64,000 bases of DNA from a virus (lineage: Duplodnaviria; Caudoviricetes): the IMG/VR virus record IMGVR_UViG_3300014208_000024, positions 288,001-352,000 of that record, one strand, 5' to 3'. Within the stretch, counting starts at the first letter, position 1, and every line of letters begins with the position of its first letter. This document shows positions 28,952 to 61,772 of the stretch, one piece after another. The notes under the pieces were generated by a model. The model searched no databases. It was not told the DNA's origin and was given only the letters and a program-made list of their open reading frames with translations. Position numbers and translations under genes: made by a program.

Positions 28952-29065
28952 AACTTTTGGTTTTAATTGGTTTATGGATCTATAAAGCAAATAAAAATAA
29001 AAAGTGGGAACGTACCACTTTATTAAATAATTTGCTTTATATACTCAACCAATAACTTTAACACT

Positions 29066-29506
29066 ATGGATAATTACGAAAAATCAAACAGTATTGAGGC
29101 TTTGCCCAATGTAAAATTTTCAAGTACAAAAACTCTTTTTTCTTATATGAGGGAAAAAGGCGTGGTAACTCAAGACGACTTGCAAAGAGTAGCAGACGCT
29201 ATATGCAATGATTTAAAAGTATCAAAGGTAAATATTATCTTTGGGGGCGTACAAAACAATACAAGGGTAAATGGCAAACTCAAATCAAAAACTCTCGGTA
29301 CTTATAACACAGGGTCAACAAACATAAGAATTTTTCAATTTACTGCTGTAAAAAAACAGGCGGTTGCCACGAAAACAACCTTTGACACCTTGCTTCACGA
29401 ATTAATGCACCATTTCGACTATAAGATATTAAATTTACAACAGTCAATTCATTCGGGGGGCTTTTACAAAAGAATAGGAAATTTAAAAACTGCTTTGTTA
29501 AGTTAA
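29066..29506 (+). CDS. SprT-like Zn metalloprotease-domain protein
   Basis: TLLHELMHH (HExxH), H...FY.R. Confidence 0.7.
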   Translation: MDNYEKSNSIEALPNVKFSSTKTLFSYMREKGVVTQDDLQRVADAICNDLKVSKVNIIFGGVQNNTRVNGKLKSKTLGTYNTGSTNIRIFQFTAVKKQAVATKTTFDTLLHELMHHFDYKILNLQQSIHSGGFYKRIGNLKTALLS

Positions 29507-29650
29507 GGGAAAGGGGGCAACCCCTTTTTTTATTTTCTTTTTTTTAATTTCTGTTTTGTAGTAAACCAATAGACAAAAATACAAAAAGGTCAATTCCCAC
29601 TTTTTCAGAAAATTTGCTTTATATACTCACCAACCAACCAAACCAAAAAT

Positions 29651-29956
29651 ATGAAAACAATCGTAACGCCTTTCGAGCAGGCACAGGAAGCTGTCCGCAA
29701 TGGAAAACTGACAACCCCAACAGTTGTTGCAGAGGGAAAACAAATCGATTATTTCGGTTATCAGATCAGTGTTCACAGGTTTAATCTGAGAATAATGGCA
29801 GGGGATATGAAATTCAGGGGCGTCAAATTAAGAGATTTAAAGAATTATTACGGTCTGACAGGTCGCAGTGCAAGTGAATGCCTTGCACAGTTTGAAAATG
29901 TAGTAGCGGACTATCGCAGGCGGTTCAATCTACTGCAATCAGTAAACAAAAATTAA
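29651..29956 (+). CDS. Hypothetical early protein
   Basis: Own class-1 promoter and terminator. Confidence 0.65.
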   Translation: MKTIVTPFEQAQEAVRNGKLTTPTVVAEGKQIDYFGYQISVHRFNLRIMAGDMKFRGVKLRDLKNYYGLTGRSASECLAQFENVVADYRRRFNLLQSVNKN

Positions 29957-30188
29957 AAGGTGTGAAAGCCGAAAAAAGGGGGTGTGAAAGCCCTCTTTTA
30001 TTTTTTTTTTAATTTTTTAAATTTCGGTATTGTCGTAAACCAACAAGCCAAACATCCAAAAATGGCAATTCCCACTTTTCCAGAAAATTTGCTTTATATA
30101 GTCACGTTCTTTCGGTAGTTAAAAAAAGCGATCACAGGGAAACAAAAAATTCCCACTTTTTCAGAAAATTCGCTTTATATACTCACAA

Positions 30189-30199
30189 GCTCTTTGACA
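30189..30199 (+). promoter_or_regulatory. boxA-like antitermination sequence
   Basis: GCTCTTTGACA, cf. rrn boxA TGCTCTTTAACA, in the leader of the 30249 gene. Confidence 0.45.
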
Positions 30200-30248
30200 T
30201 ACTGAAATCAGAAAAAATAAAGTTACCAAACCATAAAAAACAAAAATT

Positions 30249-30806
30249 ATGAAAGCTACTACATTATTACAGTTAATCGAAAGTTTCGATTTTTCAGGTG
30301 TGTCCTTTATTTCGATAAAAGGATATTGTTCAGACGAAAGTGAAAACAGCGAAATCGCTGATGTTGTTGTGAATGTTGGTGCGTCTTATGGAAATATGAA
30401 AGATGCCGATTTGATTACCCTTCAGGGTGCAGATGTTTCAAAACTTGCTTCAGACAATTTTGGTTTTGCAATTCTTGAACAGGCTGTAAAAGAAAAAATT
30501 CAGTCAATTATTGCACCAAACGAAAACCGTTCAAACGGTCAAAAAGATGCCTACATCAACCTTAACCCCAAAGGTACTCTGAAATATTGCAAATCTACGG
30601 GCAGTGTTTTGATACAGGGTACGGTTGTTCGTAAAACTGTGATTAAAGAGGGTATTTTCAAAACAACAAATTCACGCCCTTTAACCCTTGCAAAAAAACA
30701 TATTGACAAGGTTCTTGATCTGAAAGTCGCAAAAATGCGATATTACAAAATTGCAAATATCACACGAAATGTAAAAGTTTCAGGTGATTGTATCGAAATC
30801 GAATAA
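30249..30806 (+). CDS. Hypothetical early protein
   Basis: Own class-1 promoter and terminator (30826-30856). Confidence 0.7.
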   Translation: MKATTLLQLIESFDFSGVSFISIKGYCSDESENSEIADVVVNVGASYGNMKDADLITLQGADVSKLASDNFGFAILEQAVKEKIQSIIAPNENRSNGQKDAYINLNPKGTLKYCKSTGSVLIQGTVVRKTVIKEGIFKTTNSRPLTLAKKHIDKVLDLKVAKMRYYKIANITRNVKVSGDCIEIE

Positions 30807-31146
30807 CGAAAGAAAACGATCAGGGAGAGGGGGGCAGGTTGCCCCTCTTTTTTTTTCTTTTTTTTTAAAAACCTTTCCCTGATATGGTGGTTTACGAGCA
30901 AACCGAAATTTAAAAAAAAGTTTTTAAAAACTTTCCCTGACATAAACTTTCCCTTGCGTTTCCCTGTATATAGAAAACGTTCCCTTTAAAACGGTTTTTA
31001 GGCTATTTTACAGGCTTTTTTTTATTACTGAATGATATTTGATATGTTTCCCCGATCAAAACGCTTTAAAATGCTTTAAAATGTTTCCCCAAAAACGTTC
31101 CCTCTTTTTCAATTTATTTGCTTTATATATTTTAAATAATTTAATT

Positions 31147-31800
31147 ATGAAATTAGATTTTTCAGGTCGCATAAATACTGATTATACAAAGGTTTCCCTT
31201 ACTCGCTCTTTTAAATATAAGGGCGGTTTTATTTCACCTAAGAGATTAAAAAACGGCAATGAAAAATTACATCATTGTTTTGTTTTCGATTTACCTGCTG
31301 TATTAAGTTGTCCTAATTGTAAAGGTTGCAAAGATAGTTGCTACGCTTTACAGGCACAAATGCAATATCCCGATGTAAGAGTTTTCAGGCATACAAATTT
31401 ACATCTTGCTGTTTTTAATATAAGCAAGTTAAAAGAGTTAATTTGTTCACAATTGCAGACATCACGAACAAACATTGTTCGCATACATGGTAGCGGTGAT
31501 TTTTTCAGTCAACAGTATGTGGATATGTGGCTCGAAATAATTAAAATGTTTCCTGATAAAAAGTTTTACGCTTATACAAAAGCTGAGAAATTATTTACCT
31601 TTAAAAAATTATCAAACTTTAACCTTATTACATCGTTTATAGGGGGCAAATTGAATTACGGTGACATTGATTATTGCAACAGTTTAAAAGATCGTTATAA
31701 CGCTTTTATTTGCCCTTGCGGAATTGATAAAACTGTTAAATGTGGAATTGATTGTAATTATTGTATAACGAATAAAAAGGTTTGTTTTTTGAAACATTAA
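31147..31800 (+). CDS. Gp88-family Fe-S/radical-SAM-like phage protein
   Basis: FDLPA..SCP.C..C..SCYA, VRIHGSGDFFS..Y, FYAYTK; start ATG 31147. Confidence 0.7.
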   Translation: MKLDFSGRINTDYTKVSLTRSFKYKGGFISPKRLKNGNEKLHHCFVFDLPAVLSCPNCKGCKDSCYALQAQMQYPDVRVFRHTNLHLAVFNISKLKELICSQLQTSRTNIVRIHGSGDFFSQQYVDMWLEIIKMFPDKKFYAYTKAEKLFTFKKLSNFNLITSFIGGKLNYGDIDYCNSLKDRYNAFICPCGIDKTVKCGIDCNYCITNKKVCFLKH

Positions 31801-32080
31801 ACCTTTCTCACTTTCCCAGAAAATTTGCTTTATATATCCATGAGAAAATAAATAAACAAACCAAAAAGGAATTTAAAATGCGAAAGTAAGTTTGTCTTTT
31901 CCTCTTAGTAATATTAAAATAGTAACTCGCACTCACAAGGTGCGGGAAAAACGTTTTTTATTTTGTTTTTTTAAATTTCTGTTTTGTCGTAAACCAATTA
32001 CAAAAAACTCCATAACTCTTTTTCCCTCTTTTTCATTTTATTTGCTTTATATATTCACAAACCAATTAAAACCAAAAGCT

Positions 32081-32317
32081 ATGAGTTTAACAATTCACAT
32101 ACAGGCAAAGTCCAAAAAAGAGATCAATGAAAAATTGGCTCAGGGTAAAAAAGTTTACGGAGAAAGTTATTCATTATTTGGCGGTGGTGGTACGTATGAA
32201 TTGAACAAAGATTTGCCCACAGGTACGGTAATTAAAATCTTTGAGAAATATGTATCGGGCAACCCGTTTGTAAAATCTTATGGTACGTGGGCTGCGAGTA
32301 AAAACAAGGTGATATAA
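32081..32317 (+). CDS. Hypothetical early protein
   Basis: Start ATG 32081 after promoter and leader. Confidence 0.65.
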   Translation: MSLTIHIQAKSKKEINEKLAQGKKVYGESYSLFGGGGTYELNKDLPTGTVIKIFEKYVSGNPFVKSYGTWAASKNKVI

Positions 32318-32379
32318 AAATTCCCACTTTCCCAGAAAATTTGCTTTATATCTTTATAAACCAATTAAAACTGACAATC

Positions 32380-32664
32380 ATGAAAAGATCAATAGGTTTC
32401 AAAAGGAGTGAGGAAAGAGAAATTGAAGTTTCAAACAATTCTTTACCTGCCACAAATGAAGATCGTCCCAGTGAAATTTCCGTACCAATGAGTTCTGCTC
32501 AGGTTGATCTACTTGAAACGATTCAAAACCTGTCTGAAATAATTGTGGACAAAAGTTTTGCAAAGTTTGCAGAAAACCAAAGAGTTTTATTTATTAAACA
32601 GCTTATCAATGCAGTTTCATTAAATTCTGAACTGACAACAAAAACAGCTATGCTGATGGTTTAA
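32380..32664 (+). CDS. Hypothetical early protein
   Basis: Start ATG 32380 after promoter and leader. Confidence 0.6.
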   Translation: MKRSIGFKRSEEREIEVSNNSLPATNEDRPSEISVPMSSAQVDLLETIQNLSEIIVDKSFAKFAENQRVLFIKQLINAVSLNSELTTKTAMLMV

Positions 32665-32734
32665 TCCCACTTTTTGAAATAATTTGCTTTATACAGACAT
32701 AAGAAATTGCCCGAAACAAATAATACTACAAATC

Positions 32735-32818
32735 ATGAATAGAATAAGAGAACCCGATGTAAGTAAAAAAATTTATTTAGAATTTATAAAACAATCCGTT
32801 GATCAAAAACTTTCGTAA
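32735..32818 (+). CDS. 27-aa small ORF
   Basis: ATG after class-1 promoter 32664; very short. Confidence 0.35.
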   Translation: MNRIREPDVSKKIYLEFIKQSVDQKLS

Positions 32819-33158
32819 AAAAGCAAAAAGGTATGCCGAGAATAAGATGCCCGAATAGGATAAAAACCCACTGAAAATTAACAAGAGTATTAACCCTAAA
32901 TGAAAAATAGTATGATAAGAGCCTCTCCGAAATAAGCACATCTAATAATCTATAATATATAATAATCCGATTAAAACCCCTACCCGTTTATATTTGGGCG
33001 GGGGTTTCTTTTTTTTATTTCTTTTTTTTAAATTTCTGTTTTGTCGTAAACCCTCCCTTTGAAACTTTCCCCAACCTTTCCCTGTTTTCCCCAGAGTTTT
33101 CCCACTTTTTCTTTTTATTTGCTTTATATACTTGTCAAACCAATTAAAACCAAAGATC

Positions 33159-33350: not shown

Positions 33351-33405
33351 TCCCACTTTTATTTTTTATTTGCTTTATATAATCACAAACCAAAAACAAA
33401 AACCA

Positions 33406-33807: not shown

Positions 33808-34164
33808 ATGAAAAAATCATTAGCATTATTAGCAAAAGGGTTTGAAAGCTCATGTTCAACCACACCCGAATTTGCCCAGTTTTTTCGCACCTTTAAAAGC
33901 GAATTTACAAAAGAACTTCAAAGCATTGGGGCAACCAAAATCGAAATGAACAGGGGTCATTTTTACCTGTCAGGTTTTTTTACAAAAGGTGAAAAGATTT
34001 TCTATTTTTCTCTTTCCGATGTAAGAGGTTCAGACTTTGTTTTGGGCAGTGGTGGTGATCTTGATCTACTTTACAGAACTGCAAAACACTACAAAGATTG
34101 GTCAGGGGGTACAAATTGTTATGTAATAATCGAGGCGGGAATGGCTCAAAAAATGAGGTTATAA
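33808..34164 (+). CDS. Hypothetical early protein
   Basis: Own promoter; GHFY.SGF...YFS.SDVR...LYRTA..KD..GG.N pattern. Confidence 0.65.
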   Translation: MKKSLALLAKGFESSCSTTPEFAQFFRTFKSEFTKELQSIGATKIEMNRGHFYLSGFFTKGEKIFYFSLSDVRGSDFVLGSGGDLDLLYRTAKHYKDWSGGTNCYVIIEAGMAQKMRL

Positions 34165-34232
34165 AAAAGAGGGAACTTTCCCTCTTTTCTTTTTTATTTG
34201 CTTTATATATTTATAAACCAAAACTAATTTTT

Positions 34233-34457
34233 ATGAAAACAAATATTTTAAAATACAGTTTATACCTCATTTTTGTTTTAGCTTTAATTTCTAAAGTTGA
34301 CGGTTGGGGTGCAATTCTTTCAGCAGTAAAAGAGTTTTCGTCTTTTGTTTTATTTATGGCAGTTATCATCGCCTTTGTTGTTTTGCTTTATATAATGTTC
34401 AACAAATCAAAATCTCTCAAACGTTTTGTTGACGACAAAGATAATGAACTGAAATGA
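34233..34457 (+). CDS. Small two-TM membrane protein
   Basis: Two hydrophobic segments; start ATG 34233. Confidence 0.6.
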   Translation: MKTNILKYSLYLIFVLALISKVDGWGAILSAVKEFSSFVLFMAVIIAFVVLLYIMFNKSKSLKRFVDDKDNELK

Positions 34458-34521
34458 TCGTTTCCCACTTTTCAAAGAAATTTGCTTTATATAATCACAA
34501 ACCAATTAAAAACCAAAAATC

Positions 34522-34866
34522 ATGAAAAAAGCAAACATAGTATTTAATGACCAGAGAATACCATCGGAATATCTGAACACAATTCTCGTTGAAAATGTTA
34601 AAGATCTCATAAGCGCCCACAATTTTGTATTTGGATCTACATTCAGCGATTTTGCAAAAAAAGCATTAACAGGACTTAAAAAAACAAGCGATATAACATT
34701 CAGGATTGAAAGTTTAATAAGGAATGAAAATCTTGCCCCTCAAACAAAAATCTGCTTTATAAATCAATTAAAAGCTGTCCTTTCGGGTAATTTTATCAGA
34801 ATGAATAATGCAGGGGGTTACTTTGATTTTGACCCTAACAAAGCAACAATAACGAAATTAAAATAG
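34522..34866 (+). CDS. Hypothetical early protein
   Basis: Own promoter and terminator (34901-34930). Confidence 0.65.
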   Translation: MKKANIVFNDQRIPSEYLNTILVENVKDLISAHNFVFGSTFSDFAKKALTGLKKTSDITFRIESLIRNENLAPQTKICFINQLKAVLSGNFIRMNNAGGYFDFDPNKATITKLK

Positions 34867-35055
34867 GTTTTTTCATAGTTTAATTGTTTAAATTGGTTTG
34901 AAGGGGGGCTGGTTACCTCCCTTTTTTTTATTTTCTTTTTTTAAATTTCGGTTTGGTCGTAAACCATACCTTTTTGATTTTTCACCTGTGACTTCCCATG
35001 TTCCACTTTCTCAAATAATTTGCTTTATATACTCATAGCAAAAAACCATAAACAA

Positions 35056-35292
35056 ATGAAAACAATAGATAAAATTATAACCAAAGTAGATTGCAAATTC
35101 GGAGCGCCAATGGGAAGATATAATATAGGCAACAAGCCAACAAACAAAAGAGTTTTTGATTGTGCAGTCCCAATGAGTTGTGACGGTGCTTATGATAAAG
35201 GTGGGGCATATTTTGGGATTGGAAAACAATTAAGAGTTGAGTACACAAAAGATTTATCTTATGTGAAATTTTACAGGAGGGGAGAAAAATAA
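35056..35292 (+). CDS. Hypothetical early protein
   Basis: GAPMGR...YDKGGAYFG; start ATG 35056. Confidence 0.65.
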   Translation: MKTIDKIITKVDCKFGAPMGRYNIGNKPTNKRVFDCAVPMSCDGAYDKGGAYFGIGKQLRVEYTKDLSYVKFYRRGEK

Positions 35293-35347
35293 TTCCCACT
35301 TTTCAAAGAAATTTGCTTTATATACTCATAACCAAAAACCAAAACCA

Positions 35348-35539
35348 ATGACAAAAGAAAAAACTTATACAGGTGCTTATAAAGTAGTTCAAATTTTCAG
35401 AGTTTCTAAAAGGCGTAAAACTTTAAAGCGTGGTTTAACAAAAGAAGAAGCAATGAGGGTTGTTAACAGATACCCCAACAGTTCTCGGAGTATGGTTGTA
35501 TTTATGAAGCAATTTAGTGCTGATAAATATTTTGTTTAA
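35348..35539 (+). CDS. Small basic early protein
   Basis: Own promoter. Confidence 0.6.
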   Translation: MTKEKTYTGAYKVVQIFRVSKRRKTLKRGLTKEEAMRVVNRYPNSSRSMVVFMKQFSADKYFV

Positions 35540-35564
35540 CGGTTGTATAATAAAAAACAATTAA

Positions 35565-35951
35565 ATGAGATTCATTCTAAGACCATTTTGCATATTGATA
35601 GTAAAGTTTTTACAAAGAAGGTATAAACAAATAACTATTAAAAACAGGCACAATCAGACAAATCAGGTTTTATCAAAATTAAAACTGATACAATCAATTT
35701 TATATTATTTTAAAAGTCAATTTCATGCTTGGGGTTATTTTCACCCCGATTGTGGATGGAGCGAAAAAGATGAATTTAAGTTTAGGAAACTGTTTCCTAC
35801 AAAAGATTTTGAAGAGCTTGATTTAGTTGTTTTGCACAATCCTAATGCGATAACTTATTATCAGAATAGGATATATGACCTAACAAACGGAAAGAGCGTT
35901 AAATCCAGCGATATTGAGAAACAGTTAAGAAAGTGGAATGATTGGAATTAA
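35565..35951 (+). CDS. Hypothetical protein
   Basis: ORF. Confidence 0.5.
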   Translation: MRFILRPFCILIVKFLQRRYKQITIKNRHNQTNQVLSKLKLIQSILYYFKSQFHAWGYFHPDCGWSEKDEFKFRKLFPTKDFEELDLVVLHNPNAITYYQNRIYDLTNGKSVKSSDIEKQLRKWNDWN

Positions 35952-36003
35952 TCCCACTTTCTACAATAATTTGCTTTATATCCACAACCAAAACCTTAAA
36001 ATT

Positions 36004-36225
36004 ATGACTGAATTACAATTTATTCTTTTAGAAATTATTATTTTAATAATTATTTATCTTGGGTGTTTCTGTTTAATTTTTAAGTCAATGGTTTTTAATA
36101 CAGCAGAAGAAGAAATTAAAAACATGAAAATAAGCAATATAGTTGCTTTGATAGTAGTTTCAATCTGTGTTATTTGTATTTACATAAATTATCCGACATT
36201 CCCAATTTCCCACTTTCCCCAATAA
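36004..36225 (+). CDS. Small two-TM membrane protein
   Basis: Hydrophobic segments; start ATG 36004. Confidence 0.55.
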   Translation: MTELQFILLEIIILIIIYLGCFCLIFKSMVFNTAEEEIKNMKISNIVALIVVSICVICIYINYPTFPISHFPQ

Positions 36226-36261
36226 TTTGCTTTATATATTCATAACCAAAAATCAAAAGTC

Positions 36262-36480
36262 ATGATAGAATATCGCAAAAGATACAGTGAATCAACCACA
36301 CGTTCAACTTCACCCATAACAAAAAAGGGTCAGGCAATAACTGTTCGCAAAGGAAAAAAGAAATTTAAAGTTATAATCACGCACCCGAATTATGCTGGAA
36401 GCAATATAACTGAGGGGGATGCAAACGGAAAACATTATGTATGTTGGTTCAATTATGGTTCATGGTCTGTATCTAATTAA
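36262..36480 (+). CDS. Hypothetical early protein
   Basis: Own promoter. Confidence 0.6.
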   Translation: MIEYRKRYSESTTRSTSPITKKGQAITVRKGKKKFKVIITHPNYAGSNITEGDANGKHYVCWFNYGSWSVSN

Positions 36481-36534
36481 TTCCCACTTTTTATTTTAAT
36501 TTGCTTTATATATCCATAACCAAAAATAAAAGCC

Positions 36535-36771
36535 ATGCAATTAACTAAAGAAGAAAAAACAAATATATTCTGGTCGTTGCTTAAAGAATATCCCGAATTT
36601 GAAAGGAGCCGTAAACAAATGCCTTTAATTTTTAAAGGAGAAGAAAAAATATCAAAAATGATTAAAATCATTAATGATGGAGAAAAAAAAGCTTATGATT
36701 TGATCAAAAAGTTTGCTGATGAAATTGGAGAAAATATACCCGAATACAAGAATCCAAATTTGAGGGGGTAA
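36535..36771 (+). CDS. Hypothetical early protein
   Basis: Own promoter; leader identical to that of 36832. Confidence 0.6.
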   Translation: MQLTKEEKTNIFWSLLKEYPEFERSRKQMPLIFKGEEKISKMIKIINDGEKKAYDLIKKFADEIGENIPEYKNPNLRG

Positions 36772-36831
36772 TAATATTCCCACTTTCCCAGGAAATTTGC
36801 TTTATATATCCATAACCAAAAAATAAAAGCC

Positions 36832-37257
36832 ATGCCAAAATTTGAATTAAGATCAAACCAGTACATTCCTTATCGTGGAAAAAGATTACAAAGTGGGATG
36901 CCTGCCAGTGCTACATACTTTTATTTCGTAAATGAAAACGGAAAAGTTGTGGACTTACAAACATTAAAACCATATAAGGGAAAACAAATGAATCGTTATG
37001 CAATGCACGATAAAAAAGAGGCAAATTCTTTTCTTAAATTGATTAATAAAACTACAACTCACAAAGTTGAAAAGCCAAAGGGTACTTTTTATTCTGATTA
37101 TACCATAAAAGGTGATTGCTGTTATGCAATATTTGAAAACTGTGATGGAAGGGTTAATACAAAATTAGTTTGCAAAACAAAAAAAACGAATGACGATTGG
37201 AAAACTTTTAATATAAAGGAAACAAAAAGGAATTTATTTATAAATCTGGGAGAATAA
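36832..37257 (+). CDS. Hypothetical early protein
   Basis: Own promoter. Confidence 0.65.
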   Translation: MPKFELRSNQYIPYRGKRLQSGMPASATYFYFVNENGKVVDLQTLKPYKGKQMNRYAMHDKKEANSFLKLINKTTTHKVEKPKGTFYSDYTIKGDCCYAIFENCDGRVNTKLVCKTKKTNDDWKTFNIKETKRNLFINLGE

Positions 37258-37310
37258 ACTCTCCCACTTTTCTTTTTTATTTGCTTTATATATTCACAAA
37301 CCGCAAAGCT

Positions 37311-37688
37311 ATGTATAAAGTTTACAGATATGAAAGCCCTTATGATCAAACGGGGGTTTTTAATTGTAGCCTTTCAAAATTTCCTGATAAATACAAAGTT
37401 TCAAAATTGTGTGATAAAATTCATGGAGATCATATCGGAAATAAAGATCACCCCACTTTACAAACTGACGGGTTAGATTTTGCACTTGAAATGACTGGGT
37501 TTTTATGTGCTTGTAATAGCATAAAAGAATTATTGAATTGGTTTGATAAATACAATAAAAAACTTATTAAAAGCGGTTTTGTAATTGCTGAATATATTGT
37601 AATTGCAAAGTTTGACGGCAAATCTGGATTGCAATGTGTTTTCAATGAAAAGGCAATAATTGAAAGAAATGTTATTTCCACTTTTTAA
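37311..37688 (+). CDS. Hypothetical early protein
   Basis: Start ATG 37311. Confidence 0.65.
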   Translation: MYKVYRYESPYDQTGVFNCSLSKFPDKYKVSKLCDKIHGDHIGNKDHPTLQTDGLDFALEMTGFLCACNSIKELLNWFDKYNKKLIKSGFVIAEYIVIAKFDGKSGLQCVFNEKAIIERNVISTF

Positions 37689-37731
37689 TAAAATTTGCTT
37701 TATATACTTATAACTTTAAAACCTTTCCCCA

Positions 37732-38001
37732 ATGAAAAAAACAATGTATTTAACGGTCAATGTTTCTGAAGGAAACGCTGAACATATTGGAACGATGAAA
37801 ATTACATCGGCAGGTCAAATTGAAGGTAAATTAAAAGAAATGTTAGATTCACATTTTGATGCCAATGTTGAAGTTAAAAACGATACACCGTTTCAATTAG
37901 AAGATTTTCTCTACGGCAGAACCGTTGAGCTTAAAGTGAAAGTTGATTCTGAAATAGACAGCATTGAAGAAATTATTATTCAGGAAACATGGTTATATTA
38001 A
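37732..38001 (+). CDS. Small acidic early protein
   Basis: Own promoter; D/E-rich C-half. Confidence 0.65.
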   Translation: MKKTMYLTVNVSEGNAEHIGTMKITSAGQIEGKLKEMLDSHFDANVEVKNDTPFQLEDFLYGRTVELKVKVDSEIDSIEEIIIQETWLY

Positions 38002-38057
38002 ACTCCCACTTTCCCCAATAATTTGCTTTATATACTTATAAAACCAAAACTTTCCCA

Positions 38058-38213
38058 ATGGAAGAATTGAAAAAGAAAGTAATTGCAAAGTTAATTACAT
38101 ACGGCAACAATGCAGAAGAAGTGAAAATTATGGTTGCAAAACACTTTGAATATGCTGCAAGTAATTATAAGACAGTGAAGACAATTTGTGAATGTATCAG
38201 AACAATATATTAA
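38058..38213 (+). CDS. 51-aa early protein (not in ORF track)
   Basis: ATG right after promoter 38003; MEELKKKVIAKLITYGNN... Confidence 0.6.
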   Translation: MEELKKKVIAKLITYGNNAEEVKIMVAKHFEYAASNYKTVKTICECIRTIY

Positions 38214-38232
38214 AACCTTAGAGCTTAACAAA

Positions 38233-38391
38233 ATGAATATAGAGAAAAGAAAAAAAAGCAATGCAGCTCACAAAGTTTTATCGCTAATGGATAAAGATTT
38301 TTCTTATGAAAAAGCTTTGAGAAAAGTTTTAAAATCAGATAAAAGATTAAACAAAGTAAAGCTTGAAAAAGAACTGGACTTTTATATTTAA
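38233..38391 (+). CDS. Small basic protein
   Basis: Start ATG 38233. Confidence 0.5.
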   Translation: MNIEKRKKSNAAHKVLSLMDKDFSYEKALRKVLKSDKRLNKVKLEKELDFYI

Positions 38392-38449
38392 AACTCCCAC
38401 TTTTATTTTTTATTTGCTTTATATATCCATAACCAAAAACCACAACAAA

Positions 38450-38659
38450 ATGAAAAAATTAAGAGTATTTGAATTTTCCCTTGATGTTGACTATGGAGGT
38501 GGTATAATGTTAATCGCTGCCAAAGATACAGATCGTGCAATAGAATTGTGTCCAGTGCTTAGTCGTTTTCATGGTACTTGGGTATATTCAGGTGAACATA
38601 CAGAATTGTCCTATAAAGGAAAAGAGGGTGAAATTTTGAGTTTTACAAGAGTGGATTGA
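38450..38659 (+). CDS. Hypothetical early protein
   Basis: Start ATG 38450; leader identical to that of 38717. Confidence 0.6.
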   Translation: MKKLRVFEFSLDVDYGGGIMLIAAKDTDRAIELCPVLSRFHGTWVYSGEHTELSYKGKEGEILSFTRVD

Positions 38660-38716
38660 ATTTCCACTTTTCCCAATAATTTGCTTTATATATCCATAAC
38701 CAAAAACCACAACAAA

Positions 38717-39028
38717 ATGAAAAAAGATACTTACAAAACAGATGTGATTTTCAGAGTTCTCACTATTGGTGATATAACAGAAGTCACAGCATTGTTTCCT
38801 CATGATGTTGAAACGCCTGAAGGTCATATAAGCTGTTATGCTCACGTTGGTCAGCATGGGTCAGCAGATTACAGATATTGCGTATCAAAAAGCCGTCTTG
38901 CCACAAAAGAAGAATACAGGGATCTCAAAAACGAACTTGAAAACGCTGTGGGATATAACCTGAATATTGTTCAAAAACAGAACAGAACAAAATATCTGAA
39001 AAGTTATTACGAAACAAGAAAAAGATAA
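38717..39028 (+). CDS. Hypothetical early protein
   Basis: VIFR...ALFP...SCYAHVGQH; start ATG 38717. Confidence 0.65.
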   Translation: MKKDTYKTDVIFRVLTIGDITEVTALFPHDVETPEGHISCYAHVGQHGSADYRYCVSKSRLATKEEYRDLKNELENAVGYNLNIVQKQNRTKYLKSYYETRKR

Positions 39029-39127
39029 TCTGGGTTCATATTGGTTTGGTTTGATCGGGGAGGAGTGGTTTCCTCCCCTCTTTTTTAAATAATTTGCTTT
39101 ATATATTCATAACCAAAAATTAAACAA

Positions 39128-39583
39128 ATGGGACACGATATATCCGCTTTTAAAATAGAATCAAAAAACGATGACAATATTGGTTTTCGTGAAGGAGAAG
39201 AAATTTCTTATGCTTGTTTTTCCGCTGGGAACATTGTGGGTCAATATCTTTTTTATGAAAGCCTAAATGCCCAAAAATTTAACGCTGGGTGCAGTGGTGG
39301 TGGTGGTCGGGATGTTTATACTATTGACCAAATAAAAACCGCCAAATCAAAGCTAAACTACATTTCCTCAGATGATAATGTGAGTGCAGAAATTAAAAGG
39401 TATTCATTTGATGAAAAACACAATATTTTTAAAAATCTTATTGATAGGCTTAATGGCAACCCCGAAAGTGCTTTATTAAAAGGAGATGCTGAAAGAATTA
39501 AACATGAAATTAAAAAGATCAATCAGTTTTATGATAATATTTTAAACAGCGGAGAGGAAACAATTATGATAGGGTTTTATTGA
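39128..39583 (+). CDS. Hypothetical early protein
   Basis: Own promoter; terminator 39571-39600. Confidence 0.65.
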   Translation: MGHDISAFKIESKNDDNIGFREGEEISYACFSAGNIVGQYLFYESLNAQKFNAGCSGGGGRDVYTIDQIKTAKSKLNYISSDDNVSAEIKRYSFDEKHNIFKNLIDRLNGNPESALLKGDAERIKHEIKKINQFYDNILNSGEETIMIGFY

Positions 39584-39694
39584 AAACCCTTTTTTATTTT
39601 CTTTTTTTAAATTTCTGTTTTGTCGTAAACCCATATACAAAATTCCCCCACAAGACAACTTCCCACTTTTTCAAATAATTTGCTTTATATACTC

Positions 39695-39882
39695 ACGAAG
39701 CGAAAGGAAAAACAGGGTTTCAGGTTTTTGTTACTTAGAGTTTTTGTGCAGTCAGCTTCAAAGGGTTAAATTCCCTTGCAAAACTCACTTGAAAGTTAAA
39801 ACCTCCTGATCTGGTTAAACCCCAGATAACTTCGATGGTGTGAAAACCGAAAAAAAGAGGGGTGAAATCCTCTTTTTTTATT
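39695..39882 (+). ncRNA. Candidate structured small RNA (~140 nt plus terminator)
   Basis: Promoter-to-terminator unit with no ORF; nested helices CGAAG/CTTCG, AGGTTTT/AAAACCT, GAGTTTT/AAAACTC, AAGGG/CCCTT, TCTGG/CCAGA. Confidence 0.6.
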
Positions 39883-39936
39883 TCCCACTTTTTCAAATAA
39901 TTTGCTTTATATACTCACAAACCAACAATTAAAACA

Positions 39937-40194
39937 ATGGCAACAAAAAAATTAAGAATTTCAACGATAATGGGTGATTACAATTTAGGATTGTTTCAAA
40001 ACAAAATTGAATTTAAAGAACCTTTAAGCTCTTTTGAAAAAGATGAATTAAAAGCAAGTGTTTTGCACAGGGAATTTAAAACAATTGAAGAACATGATGC
40101 CTATTTGACTGCTTTAAAAGATGCAAGTGAATATCTTAACATAAGAGTTTTGACAGCAGAAGAAGTGAAAAAAATTAACAGAATGAGAATATGA
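39937..40194 (+). CDS. Hypothetical early protein
   Basis: Own promoter. Confidence 0.6.
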   Translation: MATKKLRISTIMGDYNLGLFQNKIEFKEPLSSFEKDELKASVLHREFKTIEEHDAYLTALKDASEYLNIRVLTAEEVKKINRMRI

Positions 40195-40373
40195 AAGAAA
40201 TTAATTTAACCATTGAAGGAACTTTCACAACTCAGGAGGAACTTGAAAAGTATCTAAATGCAGTTTTGGAAAGCGTGAAATTGGCAAACAGCCTTAAACT
40301 CCCTTTTCACAATTTCTGTGGACACGATAATGACAGAAAAAATGAAATTTTCGCAACCGCAAAACACAAATAA
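40191..40373 (+). CDS. Small hypothetical protein
   Basis: ATGA overlap with the upstream gene. Confidence 0.55.
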   Translation: MKEINLTIEGTFTTQEELEKYLNAVLESVKLANSLKLPFHNFCGHDNDRKNEIFATAKHK

Positions 40374-43698: not shown

Positions 43699-43768
43699 AA
43701 GAAAAGTGGGAACTCTCCCACTTTTTTATTATATTTGCTTTATATAGTCATAACCAATAATTAAGACA

Positions 43769-45346: not shown

Positions 45347-45384
45347 TTCTTCCACTTTTTTAAAAAATTTGCTTTATATAGTTG

Positions 45385-45775
45385 TAACAAAAAAAACGGG
45401 TTATCCGTATAAAATATTGGGAAAGGGTCGCTAAGGTTCCACCCCAAAACTGCGAAAGCGGTTCCGCAATGCCCAAAGCTTGCTTTATGGGAACCACCGA
45501 CAGCCCGTCCCAAAGGTTCATTGAGAATATAAAAAAATCTCCTATAACAGCCGAGTACGGTTGGTTGGAAAATGGAGATTCTGTCCGTACAACAGTTTTG
45601 GGATAAATGCTCATAATTAATAATCCCGCCGACATTTGAATGATCGGTTATGCCCCGTATGAAGCCGAGACCCTTAAGTGGCTCTGGCAATGACTGGGGC
45701 GCTAATAATCCTGAATAAAGAGCAATCCCGATGAACCGAAGGGGGGTAGGCAGTTCGCCTGTTCCCTCTTTTTTT
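45385..45775 (+). ncRNA. Candidate large structured ncRNA (~350 nt plus terminator)
   Basis: GC-richer, lacks a credible ORF, sits between a class-1 promoter and a terminator, many complementary segments including a GAAA tetraloop and long-range or pseudoknot pairings. Confidence 0.7.
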
Positions 45776-52268: not shown

Positions 52269-52613
52269 ATGGCAAAAGTATTTAACGCACCTGCGGAACT
52301 TAAAGTTCCTGATCTCAATTGGAAAGACATCCCACAGTATCATAAAGACTGTGATAAGTATTTTGAAGATTTGAAAAAACTTCTGATCGAAAAGTACAAA
52401 CGCACTGGCGCAAACGTTGGGGAAATAATTAAATTCCCTGTTGCTGATGGTTATGCTTTATATATGGTTGCAGGAATGAAACCTGTTGAATTGATACATA
52501 TTGAGATCGGTGATGCTTGGCACTTTCAGTATGCCAATCGTCTTACGGCAAAAGATGTTCAGCAAAAAATTGATCAGGAAAAGGCTCTTGCGAAATTGTT
52601 CTCCAAAAAGTAA
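52269..52613 (+). CDS. Hypothetical early protein
   Basis: Own promoter; GEIIKFPVADGYA.YMV. Confidence 0.65.
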   Translation: MAKVFNAPAELKVPDLNWKDIPQYHKDCDKYFEDLKKLLIEKYKRTGANVGEIIKFPVADGYALYMVAGMKPVELIHIEIGDAWHFQYANRLTAKDVQQKIDQEKALAKLFSKK

Positions 52614-53271: not shown

Positions 53272-53300
53272 TCCCCCGTTCTTCTTTAAAGTTATTTTAT

Positions 53301-54113: not shown

Positions 54114-54207
54114 TAAATCCCACTTTTTCAGAAAATTCGCTTTATATACTTGTTAATGTAAAAAAAAATAAATAACTTTGCTAATTATTAACTAAATTTT
54201 TTTAAAA

Positions 54208-55081: not shown

Positions 55082-55708
55082 ATGAAAGACGTAAAAGAGA
55101 TGAGTAAGAGTGCAATAGCCGATTTGGAATTGGTTAACGCCATCAAAAGTGAAGACAAAAGAAAATCAGAAAAGGCTTTTTCTCTGCTGTTTAAAAAATA
55201 CCATGATACTATGCTGTTTCACTTCAGGGGATTGGTAAAAGATGAAGAAGATGCAAAAGAAATTGTTCTCGAAGCTTTTGTAAAAGTAAGTTCAAACATT
55301 GAAAAATTCAATCAGGATTCCGCTGTGTTCAGCACATGGTTATTCAGACTTACACAGAATCTTTTCATCGATAAACTGAGAAAGAAAAAAGATGATGTTG
55401 TTTCTCTTAGCGACATGGCTACATATGACGAAGATAGCCATACTTTCGAGTTCGACTTTGAAGATTGTGATGGAACTCCTGAATCTAAAATACTGGATTC
55501 AGAAAAAGAAAGAAGAGTAAATGAAGTTCTTTCAAAAATGGAAAATCAGGAACTTGCCGAAATGATAAAAATGAGATATTTCCAAGGTCTGTCATACGAA
55601 GAAATCTCTAATGTTACGGGTAAACCTTTGGGAACTATAAAAGCTTTTATCTTCAGAGCAAAACAATTTCTGAAAAAAGACCTTAAAAGAGCTAAATTAA
55701 ATTTTTAA
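55082..55708 (+). CDS. ECF-family RNA polymerase sigma factor
   Basis: AF..LF.KY, DA.EIV.EAF.K, FSTWLFRL..NLFID.LRK (region 2), RYFQGLSYEEIS...G.PLGTIK..IFRA (region 4). Confidence 0.92.
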   Translation: MKDVKEMSKSAIADLELVNAIKSEDKRKSEKAFSLLFKKYHDTMLFHFRGLVKDEEDAKEIVLEAFVKVSSNIEKFNQDSAVFSTWLFRLTQNLFIDKLRKKKDDVVSLSDMATYDEDSHTFEFDFEDCDGTPESKILDSEKERRVNEVLSKMENQELAEMIKMRYFQGLSYEEISNVTGKPLGTIKAFIFRAKQFLKKDLKRAKLNF

Positions 55709-57801: not shown

Positions 57802-57918
57802 ATTTCGGTTTGCTCGTAAACCCCACAGTAAATCCACAAATCCAAAACTCCCACTTTTTCAAATAATTTGCTTTATATACTCACATAAACTAAATATTAA
57901 CAATTTAAATTTAAAAAA

Positions 57919-58758
57919 ATGGTACGTGAATTAAGTGAAAAAATAGGCTGGGAAATTGAAAGTAAAAATATTTTCTCAGGAGATCAAATAGGTCTCGAAA
58001 AAATTTTAGGGTACAAAGCTGTTACTCGTAATGATAACGGAGGAGTTCTCTCAGTTATGAAAAAATCTTATTCCCCCATGACCAACACAGAGTTTTTAGA
58101 AGTGGTTTCAAAAATTCAAGAAATATCTGGATTTAAACTTGCAGGGTTTAATGAATTCAGACAAGGGAGGAAAGTTTTGGGGTTCCTTGAAAATGATAAA
58201 GAGGATTTATATATTGGAGGACATAAAATAAAAGATTATTTTTTAGTTGGAAACAGCTTTGATGGATCTACATCTTTCTTCCAAGGTACATCGACAATTC
58301 TAATCCGCTGTCAAAATCAGTTCAGCCAAATTAATGTAATGAACAAAATCCGCCATACGAAAAGTATAGGAAGAAAACTTGAAGAATTTTATTCCTACTT
58401 AGATTTTTATTTCAACAAAAGAAATGAATTATATAAAACTTTCGAGCAACTTGGAAATATTACCCTCACAGAAAATTTACGTGAAAATCTTATTAAAGCT
58501 GCCCTTGGAGTTAAAGAAGTTACTGACAAAGAAATATCAGCTCGTAAACAAAATCAAATCGACCTGCTGAGATCAACAATACTCGCAGAAACTTTGGAAC
58601 TGGGCGAAAATATGTGGGGGGCATTTAATGGAGTTACAAAATATACAACCCACGAAATCGAAACAAAAAACCCCATCTTCGGAAATGTCTTCGGAAATCA
58701 GGCCGATATCAATAACAGAGCAATGGAATTTGCAACCAAAGAACTGGTAATGTCATAA
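57919..58758 (+). CDS. DUF932/DUF945-family protein
   Basis: R.D...L.V....Y.P..N.E, NSFDGS, IRCQNQ, .RHT, T.WG.FN.VT.Y..H. Confidence 0.75.
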   Translation: MVRELSEKIGWEIESKNIFSGDQIGLEKILGYKAVTRNDNGGVLSVMKKSYSPMTNTEFLEVVSKIQEISGFKLAGFNEFRQGRKVLGFLENDKEDLYIGGHKIKDYFLVGNSFDGSTSFFQGTSTILIRCQNQFSQINVMNKIRHTKSIGRKLEEFYSYLDFYFNKRNELYKTFEQLGNITLTENLRENLIKAALGVKEVTDKEISARKQNQIDLLRSTILAETLELGENMWGAFNGVTKYTTHEIETKNPIFGNVFGNQADINNRAMEFATKELVMS

Positions 58759-58821
58759 AGAAACTGGGGGAGGAAACTCTCCCCCACATTTTTTAAATGT
58801 TTAACTTAATAATTTATAATC

Positions 58822-59250
58822 ATGCATAAATCATTTGTAATTTTACTTTCGATTTTATTTAGCTTTATTATATTTGTAGACATAGGAACTATTGCATCTA
58901 TCGCATATAGAGATAATCAAAGAATCAATCAAGAAATAACTGTAAACAAAGACAGTTTCGAAGATCAATATCCCAGACTTGGACCATTTATTACCATTGA
59001 AGATTTTATACATGTAGATAGTATTTATAAAGCAGAAATGGACAGGATAAATAAATTAAAAAACAAACCTTTTAAAATGATTACAAAATGTAAATTTATT
59101 CCCGAAGTTGAATTTGTTGATTATGGAACATTCAAAGAAATAGATAGTCTTAAATGTATTCGACAAAAAGAAATGGAAAATCTTATCAAGCAAGAGAAAG
59201 AACAAGAAAAAGAACTTGATCTATTAAATAATAAACCCTGTAATAATTAA
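58822..59250 (+). CDS. Membrane-anchored hypothetical protein
   Basis: N-terminal TM segment. Confidence 0.55.
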   Translation: MHKSFVILLSILFSFIIFVDIGTIASIAYRDNQRINQEITVNKDSFEDQYPRLGPFITIEDFIHVDSIYKAEMDRINKLKNKPFKMITKCKFIPEVEFVDYGTFKEIDSLKCIRQKEMENLIKQEKEQEKELDLLNNKPCNN

Positions 59251-59332
59251 AAAGCCAAAGGGGGAGGAAACTCTCCCCATTTTTTTCTCTTTTTTTTTGC
59301 ATATTTAATGGAAATTCAAAACACCATTATCT

Positions 59333-59569
59333 ATGAAACCAAAAGAAACATTTAAGGAAATGCTCACTCTTTGCTATGAAGAAGATTTCCCAGAATTACA
59401 CAAAGAATTAATTTCACTTGAAAGTGAAACAAAAAAGATCAGAGACTCGTATAAGTATGAAAAAGCAATGGAGGAAATATTTAATCTTATACCCCTATTT
59501 TCTGAAGACTTTCCCCAGGAAATAATGTTGCAACTGGAAAAACTATATGAAGATTGTATAGAAGAATAA
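59333..59569 (+). CDS. Small acidic helical protein
   Basis: ORF after terminator 59268-59290. Confidence 0.55.
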   Translation: MKPKETFKEMLTLCYEEDFPELHKELISLESETKKIRDSYKYEKAMEEIFNLIPLFSEDFPQEIMLQLEKLYEDCIEE

Positions 59570-59584
59570 CTTAATTTAAATAAA

Positions 59585-60187
59585 ATGAAAAAAATCTCTG
59601 GAGACGTTATCGCTCACCTCCTGTTTGGAGTGGCTGCAATTGGTTTATTAATCGGTGGAGCTATTATGCTAATAGCATCTTTCTTTACAGCTCTCCCTAT
59701 ATTTAATGCTTTTATCGTATTAACACTGGGAGCTATCCTATATGTGGGAGTTAGACTTTATTTTGTATTCGGCGATGTACTGGAATCTATAACTAAATTA
59801 ATAGAAATTTCTTCCTCTCCCCAGATAAATAAGAACGGTAGAATATATAAAAATGGATTGTTAACAAAACAAATGGGATTTGGAGACCTGCCAACTCATG
59901 ATCTATCAAAAATTCCACATCCTGCACCAGGATTAATTGATGAAATTCTTATTGATGAAAATACAACCCCAGAGGAAATTGAAAATATTAAAAAGAAATA
60001 TCCTGGGTTCTCTCATGCAATTGATGAAATACTGGAAAAGGTTGGGGGGATTTCACGTACATCTACTTTACCCCTATCTTCTCTCTCTTCTTTTAAATTA
60101 GAAAAACTTCTTCAGGAAGCTATTGATAAAAATGATTTTGAAAGAGCTGCTGAAATAAGAGACGAAATTAATAGAAGGAATAAGTAA
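59585..60187 (+). CDS. Two-TM membrane protein with C-terminal UVR (UvrB/C) coiled-coil motif
   Basis: LEKLLQEAIDKNDFERAAEIRDEI. Confidence 0.7.
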   Translation: MKKISGDVIAHLLFGVAAIGLLIGGAIMLIASFFTALPIFNAFIVLTLGAILYVGVRLYFVFGDVLESITKLIEISSSPQINKNGRIYKNGLLTKQMGFGDLPTHDLSKIPHPAPGLIDEILIDENTTPEEIENIKKKYPGFSHAIDEILEKVGGISRTSTLPLSSLSSFKLEKLLQEAIDKNDFERAAEIRDEINRRNK

Positions 60188-60208
60188 CCTTTTAAAAATT
60201 AATCCGTA
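60183..60208 (+). promoter_or_regulatory. ECF-sigma-type promoter
   Basis: AGTAAC-N16-CGTA. Confidence 0.6.
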
Positions 60209-60354
60209 TAAGATAGTAAGAGTAATTTATATAACAAGTTGTATCTACTAATCGCATGATTAAAACCCCACACCCAAAATTTGCTGGGGTTTTTTTATTC
60301 CCACTTTTTAAAATAATTTGCTTTATATAGTTATTGTTAAAAAAAACTAAAGCT

Positions 60355-60525
60355 ATGTTTGAAAAACTAATCTGGAAACTGTTTAAAATGAACAGGAATG
60401 ATTTCAATAAGGCAGATAAGAAAATTGAAAAGATACTGCTTGAAGTTTATGAAAAAGGTAAAAAGGATGGCAAAAAAGAAATGTCAAAATTAATGTCGAT
60501 ATTAGTTAAAAAAACAATATTATGA
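60355..60525 (+). CDS. Small hypothetical early protein
   Basis: Start ATG 60355. Confidence 0.55.
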   Translation: MFEKLIWKLFKMNRNDFNKADKKIEKILLEVYEKGKKDGKKEMSKLMSILVKKTIL

Positions 60526-60911
60526 AATTAGAAATTAAGCAATACAAATATGAAAAAATAGAGGTGTCATCAAAAGAAATTGAATTGCCAACTGAAACCT
60601 CTTACTTTTTTCAAACTGGAATAAGACGTTCAATAAAAATAACTCCACGTTTTACAACTTGGAATAAAAAACACTATAATAAAGAAGAAGAGTTATATGA
60701 ACTTATAGTTGTTTGTTTATACCAAAATTTTGAATGTAAAGCAGAAAAGTTCAGCTTAAGAGTTAATGAATTAGAAAATATTTATTATTCTGAAAAAGAC
60801 GAAAATAAAGAATTTGTAACTGCATTGATTGATGGTTGTTTTAATAAAAGAACTAAAGAACAATTTGATGCTGATTTTAAACACATATTTTCAGAAATGC
60901 AGTGTCTTTAA
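60522..60911 (+). CDS. Hypothetical protein
   Basis: ATGA overlap. Confidence 0.6.
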   Translation: MKLEIKQYKYEKIEVSSKEIELPTETSYFFQTGIRRSIKITPRFTTWNKKHYNKEEELYELIVVCLYQNFECKAEKFSLRVNELENIYYSEKDENKEFVTALIDGCFNKRTKEQFDADFKHIFSEMQCL

Positions 60912-60912
60912 A

Positions 60913-61443
60913 ATGAAAAAATTTCTCCTGTTCATATTCAATTTATTCAATAAGAAATCTCTGGAGCCCCCAAAACCAGAACTCATCGTCATTAGCAAAA
61001 AATCAAATAGCGGAAGTACAATACAAAACCATTTTGTCTATACAGCTGCAAACCCCAGTATTAAATCTCTGGCCGCTTCTGTGCTTCTTAAAAATGATCT
61101 TATGTTTCAAGATGTAGACTACCTGGAAGATGAACTTCATAAATGGCTCGAATTTCGTGAAAGATATCTATATAAACAACTGATATTAAAAAAAGGTCTG
61201 ATATGTACCTATTGTGGAAAACCCCACCTGGAAATCGGAGGTAGAACCCCCAAAGATATTATCGCTAATAACAAAAACCCAAACCTGGCAACTATAGACC
61301 ATATTACAGCGCTCGCTAATGGGGGATCAAAGTATGATGAAGATAATCTATGCGTTAGCTGTAAAAAATGCAACAGAAACAAAGGAACAACCCCAGTGGA
61401 AGAATTTAAAAGAAAATTAAATTTTAAAAATTTTAATCAATAG
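60913..61443 (+). CDS. HNH endonuclease
   Basis: CTYCG...ATIDHI.AL.NGG.....NL.VSC..CN..KG. Confidence 0.85.
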   Translation: MKKFLLFIFNLFNKKSLEPPKPELIVISKKSNSGSTIQNHFVYTAANPSIKSLAASVLLKNDLMFQDVDYLEDELHKWLEFRERYLYKQLILKKGLICTYCGKPHLEIGGRTPKDIIANNKNPNLATIDHITALANGGSKYDEDNLCVSCKKCNRNKGTTPVEEFKRKLNFKNFNQ

Positions 61444-61444
61444 T

Positions 61445-61470
61445 TGTAACCTTTTTTAATTTTTCTCGTA
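61445..61470 (+). promoter_or_regulatory. ECF-sigma-type promoter
   Basis: TGTAAC-N16-CGTA. Confidence 0.7.
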
Positions 61471-61477
61471 TTAATAG

Positions 61478-61590
61478 GTAACTTGGATAACTTGGACGCC
61501 CGTCCTTAAACTATTCAAGTCTTTGTATTCTTTGTCTGTTTTATTTTTTAGAAACCCCTGAGCTTGTCCCTCTGGGGTTTCAGTTTTTTA
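61478..61590 (+). ncRNA. Candidate small RNA
   Basis: ACTTGGATA/TATTCAAGT stem enclosing GGAC-GCCC-GTCC; terminator GAAACCCC...GGGGTTTC-T6. Confidence 0.45.
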
Positions 61591-61746
61591 AAAACTTTTT
61601 TTTAAATTTCGGTTCCGTCGTAAACCCCCACAAACAATCTCTTTTTCTATTTTTTATTTTTCTTTTTTTAAATTTCGGTTTGCTCGTAAACCCCCATAGT
61701 AAAACCCCCAATCTAAAATTCCCACTTTTTTAAAAAATTTGCTTTA

Positions 61747-61772
61747 TATAACTTTTGCCTTTTTTCTGCGTA
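61747..61772 (+). promoter_or_regulatory. ECF-type promoter overlapping the last class-1 promoter
   Basis: TATAAC-N16-CGTA. Confidence 0.6.

Follow-up and report, generated by a model that had tools for sequence, protein, structure and literature searches.

A probable two-box promoter class predicted to drive shuffled gene cassettes in huge T4-like phages of Bacteroidota

The window analyzed here is a stretch of 64,000 nucleotides from a viral record, IMGVR_UViG_3300014208_000024 (G000, 372,283 bp), and covers positions 288,001-352,000 of that record. All coordinates are those of the window unless marked G000. The record belongs to a huge T4-like phage with 28.7% GC and 46 transfer RNA (tRNA) genes; neither the phage nor its host is in culture. 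A large part of the window is occupied by an array of a short repeated element, which was named class-1 and has the form CCC(A/T)CTTT-N9-TTTGCTTTATATA, measuring 30 nt from the box to TATATA. As originally predicted, about 58 near-identical and nearly all co-oriented copies are present; 57 co-oriented copies and one divergent copy were counted. Individual copies are named by the start of their box (P36209 and so on). The array consists of the following features.

29014..61750, plus strand, class-1 array of 57 copies with box and core at fixed spacing
Box starts on the plus strand, part 1: 29014 29596 30071 30152 31100 31807 32024 32323 32666 33101 33352 33752 34180 34464 35002 35295 35953 36209 36483 36779
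Box starts on the plus strand, part 2: 37263 37677 38005 38396 38663 39076 39662 39884 40649 40938 41303 41696 42294 42647 43110 43717 44724 45351 45779 46034
Box starts on the plus strand, part 3: 46723 46927 47290 47817 48824 49285 49806 52214 52698 53619 53876 54119 55024 56295 57850 60300 61721
28979..29008, minus strand, divergent 58th copy with its box at 29008 and its core at 28979-28991, one core mismatch (TTTGCTTTATAGA) and an ATG 27 nt downstream

The core TTTGCTTTATATA, allowing up to one mismatch, was found 63 times in the window against 0.54 expected, and the largest number in any shuffle was 3. The plus strand carries 59 of these 63 matches. In all 57 boxed plus-strand copies the box CCC(A/T)CTTT starts exactly 17 nt 5' of TTTG, and the N9 spacer is invariant in length, so that the element is a rigid 30-mer; the spacer of N7-8 given in the original prediction was an estimate by eye and is replaced by a fixed N9 (57/57 copies). 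The position-by-position logo, with the consensus tTCCCaCTTTt..aaatAATTTGCTTTATATAnTCAyAA, revealed a conserved block of about 40 nt reaching from 19 nt before TTTG to about 9 nt past TATATA. Fourteen positions are invariant. The information content of the 30-nt core is about 43 bits, whereas 14-17 bits, roughly a third of this, would suffice to specify 57 sites in a phage-plus-host genome. Two plus-strand matches to the core only, at 34382-34394 and 52452-52464, lack the upstream box, lie within open reading frames (ORFs) and were not accepted as class-1.

Full class-1 copies are confined to 317-350 kb of the 372-kb record. When the whole record was scanned, 59 of 63 plus-strand core matches fell at 310-360 kb and none before 70 kb. 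The density between 29 and 50 kb of the window was measured as one copy per about 440 bp, within the 400-450 bp given in the original prediction, and copies are sparser at 52-62 kb. The minus-strand copy at 29008 fronts a leftward ORF, and the array therefore opens with a divergent pair.

The arrangement around the copies is equally regular. The first ATG was found 21-28 nt past TATATA in 43 of the 57 copies. The leaders are about 25 nt long, rich in A and C (for example AACCAAAAACC) and have no Shine-Dalgarno sequence, a sequence which Bacteroidota usually do without. About 30 units end with an ORF whose stop codon is only 1-18 nt from the following box; the intergenic space there consists entirely of the element and its leader. 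Most promoters are followed by one ORF of 45-180 aa, a few by two or three, and several by no credible ORF. Terminator-like hairpins are over-represented at 29-49 kb (42 against 11.3 ± 4.0 expected), nearly all of them co-oriented, and in 13 of the 57 copies the C-rich box itself forms the 3' arm of such a hairpin. The class-1 elements are read as promoters because of their position, their orientation, their two boxes and the terminators in front of them. Examples of a box-fused hairpin and of units without an ORF are given below.

43700..43727, plus strand, terminator-like hairpin with the P43717 box as its 3' arm
39662..39883, plus strand, class-1 unit that lacks an ORF and stops directly before the following promoter; no ATG ORF of at least 25 aa within 110 nt and no Rfam match
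45351..45775, plus strand, class-1 unit without a convincing ORF, with a strong terminator-like hairpin at 45741-45767 and no Rfam match

The units at 39662 and 45351 are both closed by terminator-like hairpins. Class-1 promoters without a credible ORF were noted at 30071-30151, 31807-32023, 39662-39883 and 45351-45775, and such ORF-less units are candidate small RNAs.

The class-1 sequence was set against several promoter rules. The logo has no in-register match to the Bacteroidota type (-33 TTG and -7 TAnnTTTG, about 19 nt apart), and TTGACA/TATAAT sites of the E. coli type occur at the frequency expected by chance (80 against 81). The earlier statement that the motif fits neither TTGACA nor the Bacteroidota rule is thus confirmed, and host-type promoters do occur elsewhere in the genome. 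The rule for extracytoplasmic function (ECF) sigma factors, -35 AAC and -10 CGT with a 16-17 nt spacer, is matched in spacing in one register, while both sequence elements differ in class-1. The T4 middle promoter rule has an (a/t)3TGCTTtA box centred on -30 and a -10 hexamer 11-13 nt downstream; class-1 does contain TTTGCTTTA but with an abutting TATA, and the TG of TTTGCTTTA is not retained in relatives.

Two relatives were found to carry arrays of the same element. IMGVR_UViG_3300029288_000057 (G001, 290,886 bp), reached via its sigma gene (the encoded sigma is 86% identical), holds about 50 co-oriented copies at 41-84 kb with the consensus CCCTCTTT-N13-CTTTATATA. The 12.5-kb contig LFRM01247229.1 (L053) has 26 copies of CCCTCTTT-N13-CTTTAT(A/G)T(A/G), one per 400-450 bp, and ten of them possess a hairpin between the two boxes. 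As the TTTG of the element is variable in both relatives, only the box and CTTTAT, at a constant distance from each other, count as essential. Box-fused hairpins were counted in 13/57 copies of the window, 8/48 of G001 and 13/23 of L053, and are a minority feature in the present genome. Of the 54 first ORFs of the window, 43 have no homologue in the syntenic 54 kb of G001 and only 11 have one; in the reverse direction the figure is 7 of 46. The ORFs in common are mostly collinear. It appears from these comparisons that the promoter is kept while about 80% of the cargo genes differ between the phages.

A megablast search of a phage collection gave no match, an IMG/VR scan with the full G000 motif gave two single matches only, and a metagenome motif scan returned mainly the relative's own contig. 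When 185,579 bacterial and archaeal genomes were scanned, the matches listed (at least 120 stretches) were all single except in one metagenome-assembled genome. The several matches in that genome were rejected as class-1, as they belong to an unrelated 74-nt tandem unit. Since the matches listed were all single bar this tandem repeat, they give no sign of class-1 as a common cellular promoter.

The genes behind the promoters are largely of unassigned function. Among the 20 larger class-1 products, 18 had no informative Pfam or PHROG match, and recognizable features other than an ECF sigma factor were limited to a SEC-C motif and a DUF932 domain. Precomputed matches in the array point to a T4 Y00F-like and a GP88-like protein. 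No paralogues were found among the array genes. The G+C content at third codon positions is 0.26 in class-1 genes, 0.165 in late-type, 0.19 in host-type and 0.21 in ECF-type genes. The higher value of the class-1 genes fits recent acquisition, or expression before the phage tRNAs are available. With these genes the array supplies about 55 candidates for roles in host takeover or anti-defence.

Similarity between copies extends beyond the core. Neighbouring copies share 20-44 nt of exact identity, and 34 promoter pairs across the array share at least 30 nt, the longest run being 44 nt. Two pairs of neighbouring leaders had been described as identical; the leaders at 38413 and 38680 indeed agree in full through ATGAAAAAA, and a single base separates those at 36500 and 36796. 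Because the array genes have no paralogues among themselves, identical neighbouring leaders point to copying of promoter and leader and not to gene duplication.

A likely recombination product was identified in L054, a 3,573-bp contig of a strain variant from an independent Joint Genome Institute sample (3300037810) which was reached by exact-protein look-up. Positions 1-2340 of this contig match window 33918-36257 with 99.87% identity, and positions 2304-3573 match window 39088-40357 with 99.92% identity. The 37-nt overlap of the two parts consists of the core and leader common to P36209 and P39076, which are exactly alike over 33 nt. The segments concerned are as follows.

36258..39124, plus strand, 2,867-bp block of nine cassettes absent from L054
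36209..36257, plus strand, left recombination partner, P36209 and the start of its leader; L054 retains the P36209 box and spacer
39076..39124, plus strand, right recombination partner, P39076 and its leader; L054 retains the P39076 leader and the 151-aa gene behind it

The original prediction had proposed to look for indel breakpoints of relatives inside the repeat, and this 2,867-bp indel has its junction inside a 33-nt identity of two promoters. Contigs of the same sample are collinear with the window over about 25 further copies, which indicates that the assembler does not generally collapse the repeats. Logan contigs of two groundwater runs, compared with 29-49 kb, break at the repeats, and the joints listed have sides of 20-56 nt only. 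The 72-aa product of the deleted block was looked for and has no record. Recombination between class-1 copies appears to add and remove cassettes.

At least three other promoter classes are present in the same genome. About 33 clean intergenic promoters of the Bacteroidota type, TTG-N18-20-TAnnTTTG, were counted. A motif with no -35 element, TTT-N4-(A/C)TATTTATA followed by an A-run, is situated 10-25 nt before the start of 142 genes genome-wide, and this (A/C)TATTTATA motif is likely a late promoter class. TG(T/A)AAC-N16-CGTATA, found at 36 intergenic sites genome-wide and in many cases joined to a TAnnTTTG box, matches the SigW-type consensus of B. subtilis, TGAAAC-N16-CGTATA. The last class-1 copy of the array is overlapped by an AAC-N16-CGTA site (TATATAAC...CGTA) at 61721-61772, so that two promoter types are stacked before one gene.

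7138, 13443, 15818, 16851, 18522, 50475, 60186, 61448, 61750, examples of TG(T/A)AAC-N16-CGTATA sites in the window

Neither T7-type RNA polymerase nor beta/beta-prime genes were found in the record with PF00940, PF00562 and PF00623, where about 82 kb is missing and very divergent enzymes could escape. No MotCF match passed the cut-off and no AsiA match was found in the record. Three proteins with similarity to sigma factors were considered as candidate readers of class-1, along with a promoter nested in the array.

G000:98736-99575 (L003:982-1821), minus strand, RpoD-like sigma of 279 aa, in an operon behind a host-type promoter
55082..55708, plus strand, ECF sigma of 208 aa, behind class-1 copy P55024; Pfam Sigma70_r2 and r4_2, best NCBIfam matches SigW and RpoE
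54150..54180, plus strand, host-type promoter TTG-N20-TAACTTTG found by pattern scan, between P54119 and the 270-aa gene preceding the ECF sigma gene
G000:91231-93876 (the two adjacent genes together G000:91231-95749; L188, L189), 881-aa late-type protein with a predicted sigma-2 domain

The 279-aa sigma is 57-60% identical to bacterial RpoD proteins of 290 aa, and its regions 2.4 (FISYAVWWIRQSI) and 4.2 (LTNERVRQIK.FALKKLR) are identical to those of Bacteroidota RpoD. It is retained at 78-90% identity in many huge-phage contigs and may serve as a replacement for host sigma-A. The orthologue of the 208-aa ECF sigma in G001 shares 62% identity and is also situated behind a class-1 copy. The nested arrangement at 54119-54207, with the host-type promoter just past the class-1 copy, is found in G001 as well (site 41426) and may prime expression of the sigma. 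Because TG(T/A)AAC-N16-CGTATA equals the SigW-type consensus and the best matches of the ECF sigma are SigW and RpoE, this class is its likely regulon. A weak Sigma70_r4_2 match in a 189-aa protein was also followed; the protein is not a sigma factor but a helix-turn-helix HNH endonuclease.

The 881-aa protein is encoded behind a late-type promoter. Fifteen of 16 members of its family match Sigma70_r2, and the best solved-structure match of the family profile is an ECF sigma, aligned over an FGAW..ARN..D motif. A model of residues 215-445, with a mean predicted local distance difference test score of 85, retrieved the sigma-2 domains of WhiG, SigE, SigC and SigB by Foldseek at probabilities of 0.93-1.0 and weak E-values of 0.01-0.3. 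These folds came from the isolated domain only, and the fold search with the whole protein was uninformative. Aligning the family with RpoD-like sigmas by hhalign gave nothing. The 622-aa neighbour, likewise of the late type, carries a short basic tag of the IRKxIRKxLLE type at its N and C ends, which is also found on at least 8 other proteins. Both families are confined to this phage clade. Neither was found in G001, whose contig stops only 283 nt beyond the sigma gene, which makes this absence uninformative. The related phage P0007 lacks an 881-aa gene within 10 kb downstream of its sigma gene and has a 504-aa gene in the equivalent position, which slightly weakens the idea of an injected sigma.

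Considering these observations together, class-1 is probably a dedicated two-box promoter class that drives shuffled cassettes in one clade of huge T4-like Bacteroidota phages. The boxes CCC(A/T)CTTT and CTTTATATA, 13 nt apart, would be the promoter elements. Each copy with its leader of about 25 nt would drive one small gene of unassigned function, at times two or three, or a non-coding RNA, and about a quarter of the copies would in addition make a terminator hairpin with the C-rich box. As every copy brings its own promoter, leader and gene, the 33-kb region can be seen as a string of self-contained promoter(-terminator)-leader-gene cassettes. Homologous recombination between neighbouring copies would delete, insert and swap cassettes, leading to fast turnover of gene content while the promoter is kept and homogenized. 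Transcription would require the host core RNA polymerase together with a specificity factor supplied by the phage, not host sigma-A alone. The ECF sigma gene belongs to the class-1 genes, and class-1 would thus be expected to come into play ahead of the ECF-sigma regulon.

Several points weigh against this proposal or limit it. The reading of the class-1 repeats as promoters of shuffled cassettes is well supported by their sequence and by the comparison with relatives, and a look-up of RNA runs listed none that contains this DNA. Early timing of class-1 would follow from regulatory logic; as class-1 is not of the host type, it may need a phage factor and may be delayed-early. The evidence for recombination is one junction in one short-read metagenome contig, and sample 3300037810 also has the missing block on a separate contig with 100% identity. 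An assembly artefact at the L054 junction is unlikely, and the presence and absence of the block in one sample would fit a polymorphic population, as with PeSL (promoter early stem-loop) deletions and mini-circles. The European Nucleotide Archive contig k141_11612 (L058, 455,767 bp), from the same phage, has about 82 kb ahead of the first base of the record; parts of the phage genome are therefore probably missing from the 372-kb record, although its completeness was estimated at 100%, and the confinement of class-1 to one region is not fully proven. The original view of class-1 as a phage-specific promoter that also serves as recombination homology is partly supported, by the promoter anatomy, by its retention in at least two related phages and by one indel junction inside the repeat; the RNA polymerase sink that it also suggested would be a speculative further role.

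The class-1 copies might be ordinary early promoters, an unusually strong non-consensus variant read by host sigma-A or by the RpoD-like phage copy in the way PeSLs are read by sigma-70. TATATA or TATAnT would make a fair -10 hexamer with the box at -35 and 17-nt spacing, the phage encodes an RpoD-like sigma, and the PeSLs of T4-type phages are host-type promoters (PMC2839356). Yet the -7 TTTG and -33 TTG of Bacteroidota promoters are absent; the sole TTTG that the element contains varies in the two relatives, and A or G stands where -7 would require a T. Elsewhere the genome has about 33 canonical promoters, and the phage sigma, with regions 2.4 and 4.2 identical to bacterial RpoD, should read this canonical type and not class-1. 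We therefore regard this explanation as unlikely, and host sigma-A and the RpoD-like sigma as unlikely readers of class-1. The ECF sigma would provide another route, in which initial expression from the nested host-type promoter would be followed by activation, through the sigma itself, of its own class-1 copy and the remaining 56. ECF sigmas commonly regulate their own genes, and in both phages a class-1 copy precedes this one. A conserved host-type promoter lies directly before the two-gene unit, and class-1 written as CCCWC-N16-CTTTA has an ECF-like spacing of 16 nt. Class-1 has neither AAC nor CGT, however, and for a sigma most like SigW and RpoE the 36 TG(T/A)AAC-N16-CGTATA sites fit far better, which leaves class-1 as its regulon improbable.

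Another possibility is that the repeat acts within long transcripts started elsewhere, as an RNA-level or protein-binding signal (a processing site, translation enhancer or operator, for example). The fixed distance to the start codons would suit a translational signal too. Against it, two boxes separated by a free-sequence spacer of fixed length and two helical turns apart are the signature of protein-DNA recognition, no covarying structure was seen, and the leader varies between phages while the boxes are constant. Terminator hairpins directly before many copies, together with the ORF-less units, would moreover make re-initiation necessary. Such a signal is accordingly given very little chance. 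If class-1 is instead a dedicated promoter class, one tentative and rather doubtful proposal for its reader, based on the modelled domain, is the 881-aa protein, which might be carried in the virion as a sigma-like factor, perhaps with its 622-aa neighbour, and redirect the host core polymerase at the start of infection with no need for phage gene expression. An unrecognized activator acting with sigma-A is equally possible as the reader.

Some large virulent phages that encode no RNA polymerase use sigma cascades, as in SPO1 (gp28, then gp33/34) and T4 (AsiA/MotA, then gp55/gp33). The present phage likewise has several promoter classes in one genome, sigma genes placed under the preceding class and a predicted reuse of the host core polymerase, but its most numerous class has no assigned sigma and no MotA/AsiA homologue was found. 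SigW-type promoters are similar to the TG(T/A)AAC-N16-CGTATA class of the phage, and class-1 can be written with the same 16-nt spacing; it differs in having CCCWC instead of AAC and CTTTAT instead of CGTATA. In N4, phiKZ, AR9 and crAss-like phages, early promoters are read by polymerases delivered with the virion (PMC7598289). Those promoters are, like class-1, very conserved, phage-specific and unrelated to the host consensus. Unlike the present genome, in which none was found, those phages encode the polymerase; here at most a protein with a sigma-like domain could be delivered. Group 2 jumbo phages are described as having no polymerases and possessing minimal and RpoD-like sigmas (PMC7824862). 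A promoter of 43 bits in 57 copies, with no assigned reader, in a phage where no polymerase of its own was found makes a sharply defined question. The reader, if identified, would give a compact orthogonal promoter-factor pair for Bacteroidota, for which few genetic tools exist, and could reveal a new takeover of host transcription.

The closest parallel is provided by the PeSLs of the T4-type phages RB49, phi1, PST and nt-1 (Arbiol et al. 2010, PMC2839356; Comeau et al. 2014, PMC4122927). About 50 PeSLs per genome are found upstream of ORFans in the hyperplastic regions of RB49 and phi1, each combining a promoter of sigma-70 consensus with a stem-loop at variable positions, and they mediate indels and mini-circles (PMC2839356; PMC4122927). 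PeSL-type cassettes are hence already published and the cassette concept is not new. The class-1 array shares with them the roughly 50 repeated cassettes in a hyperplastic region directly upstream of ORFans, in a minority of copies stem-loops at variable positions, and an indel between close relatives with its junction in the repeat. It differs in that class-1 matches no host consensus, unlike the host sigma-70 consensus of PeSLs, that only about a quarter of the copies have a stem-loop, and that the copies form a single co-oriented array of 33 kb with far higher conservation (43 bits). The setting is different as well, being a huge phage of the host phylum Bacteroidota with no Shine-Dalgarno sequences, where promoter activity is predicted from sequence. 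The comparison extends promoter-cassette shuffling from T4 relatives among the coliphages and vibriophages to huge environmental phages of another phylum, and suggests that cassette shuffling does not depend on host-type promoters.

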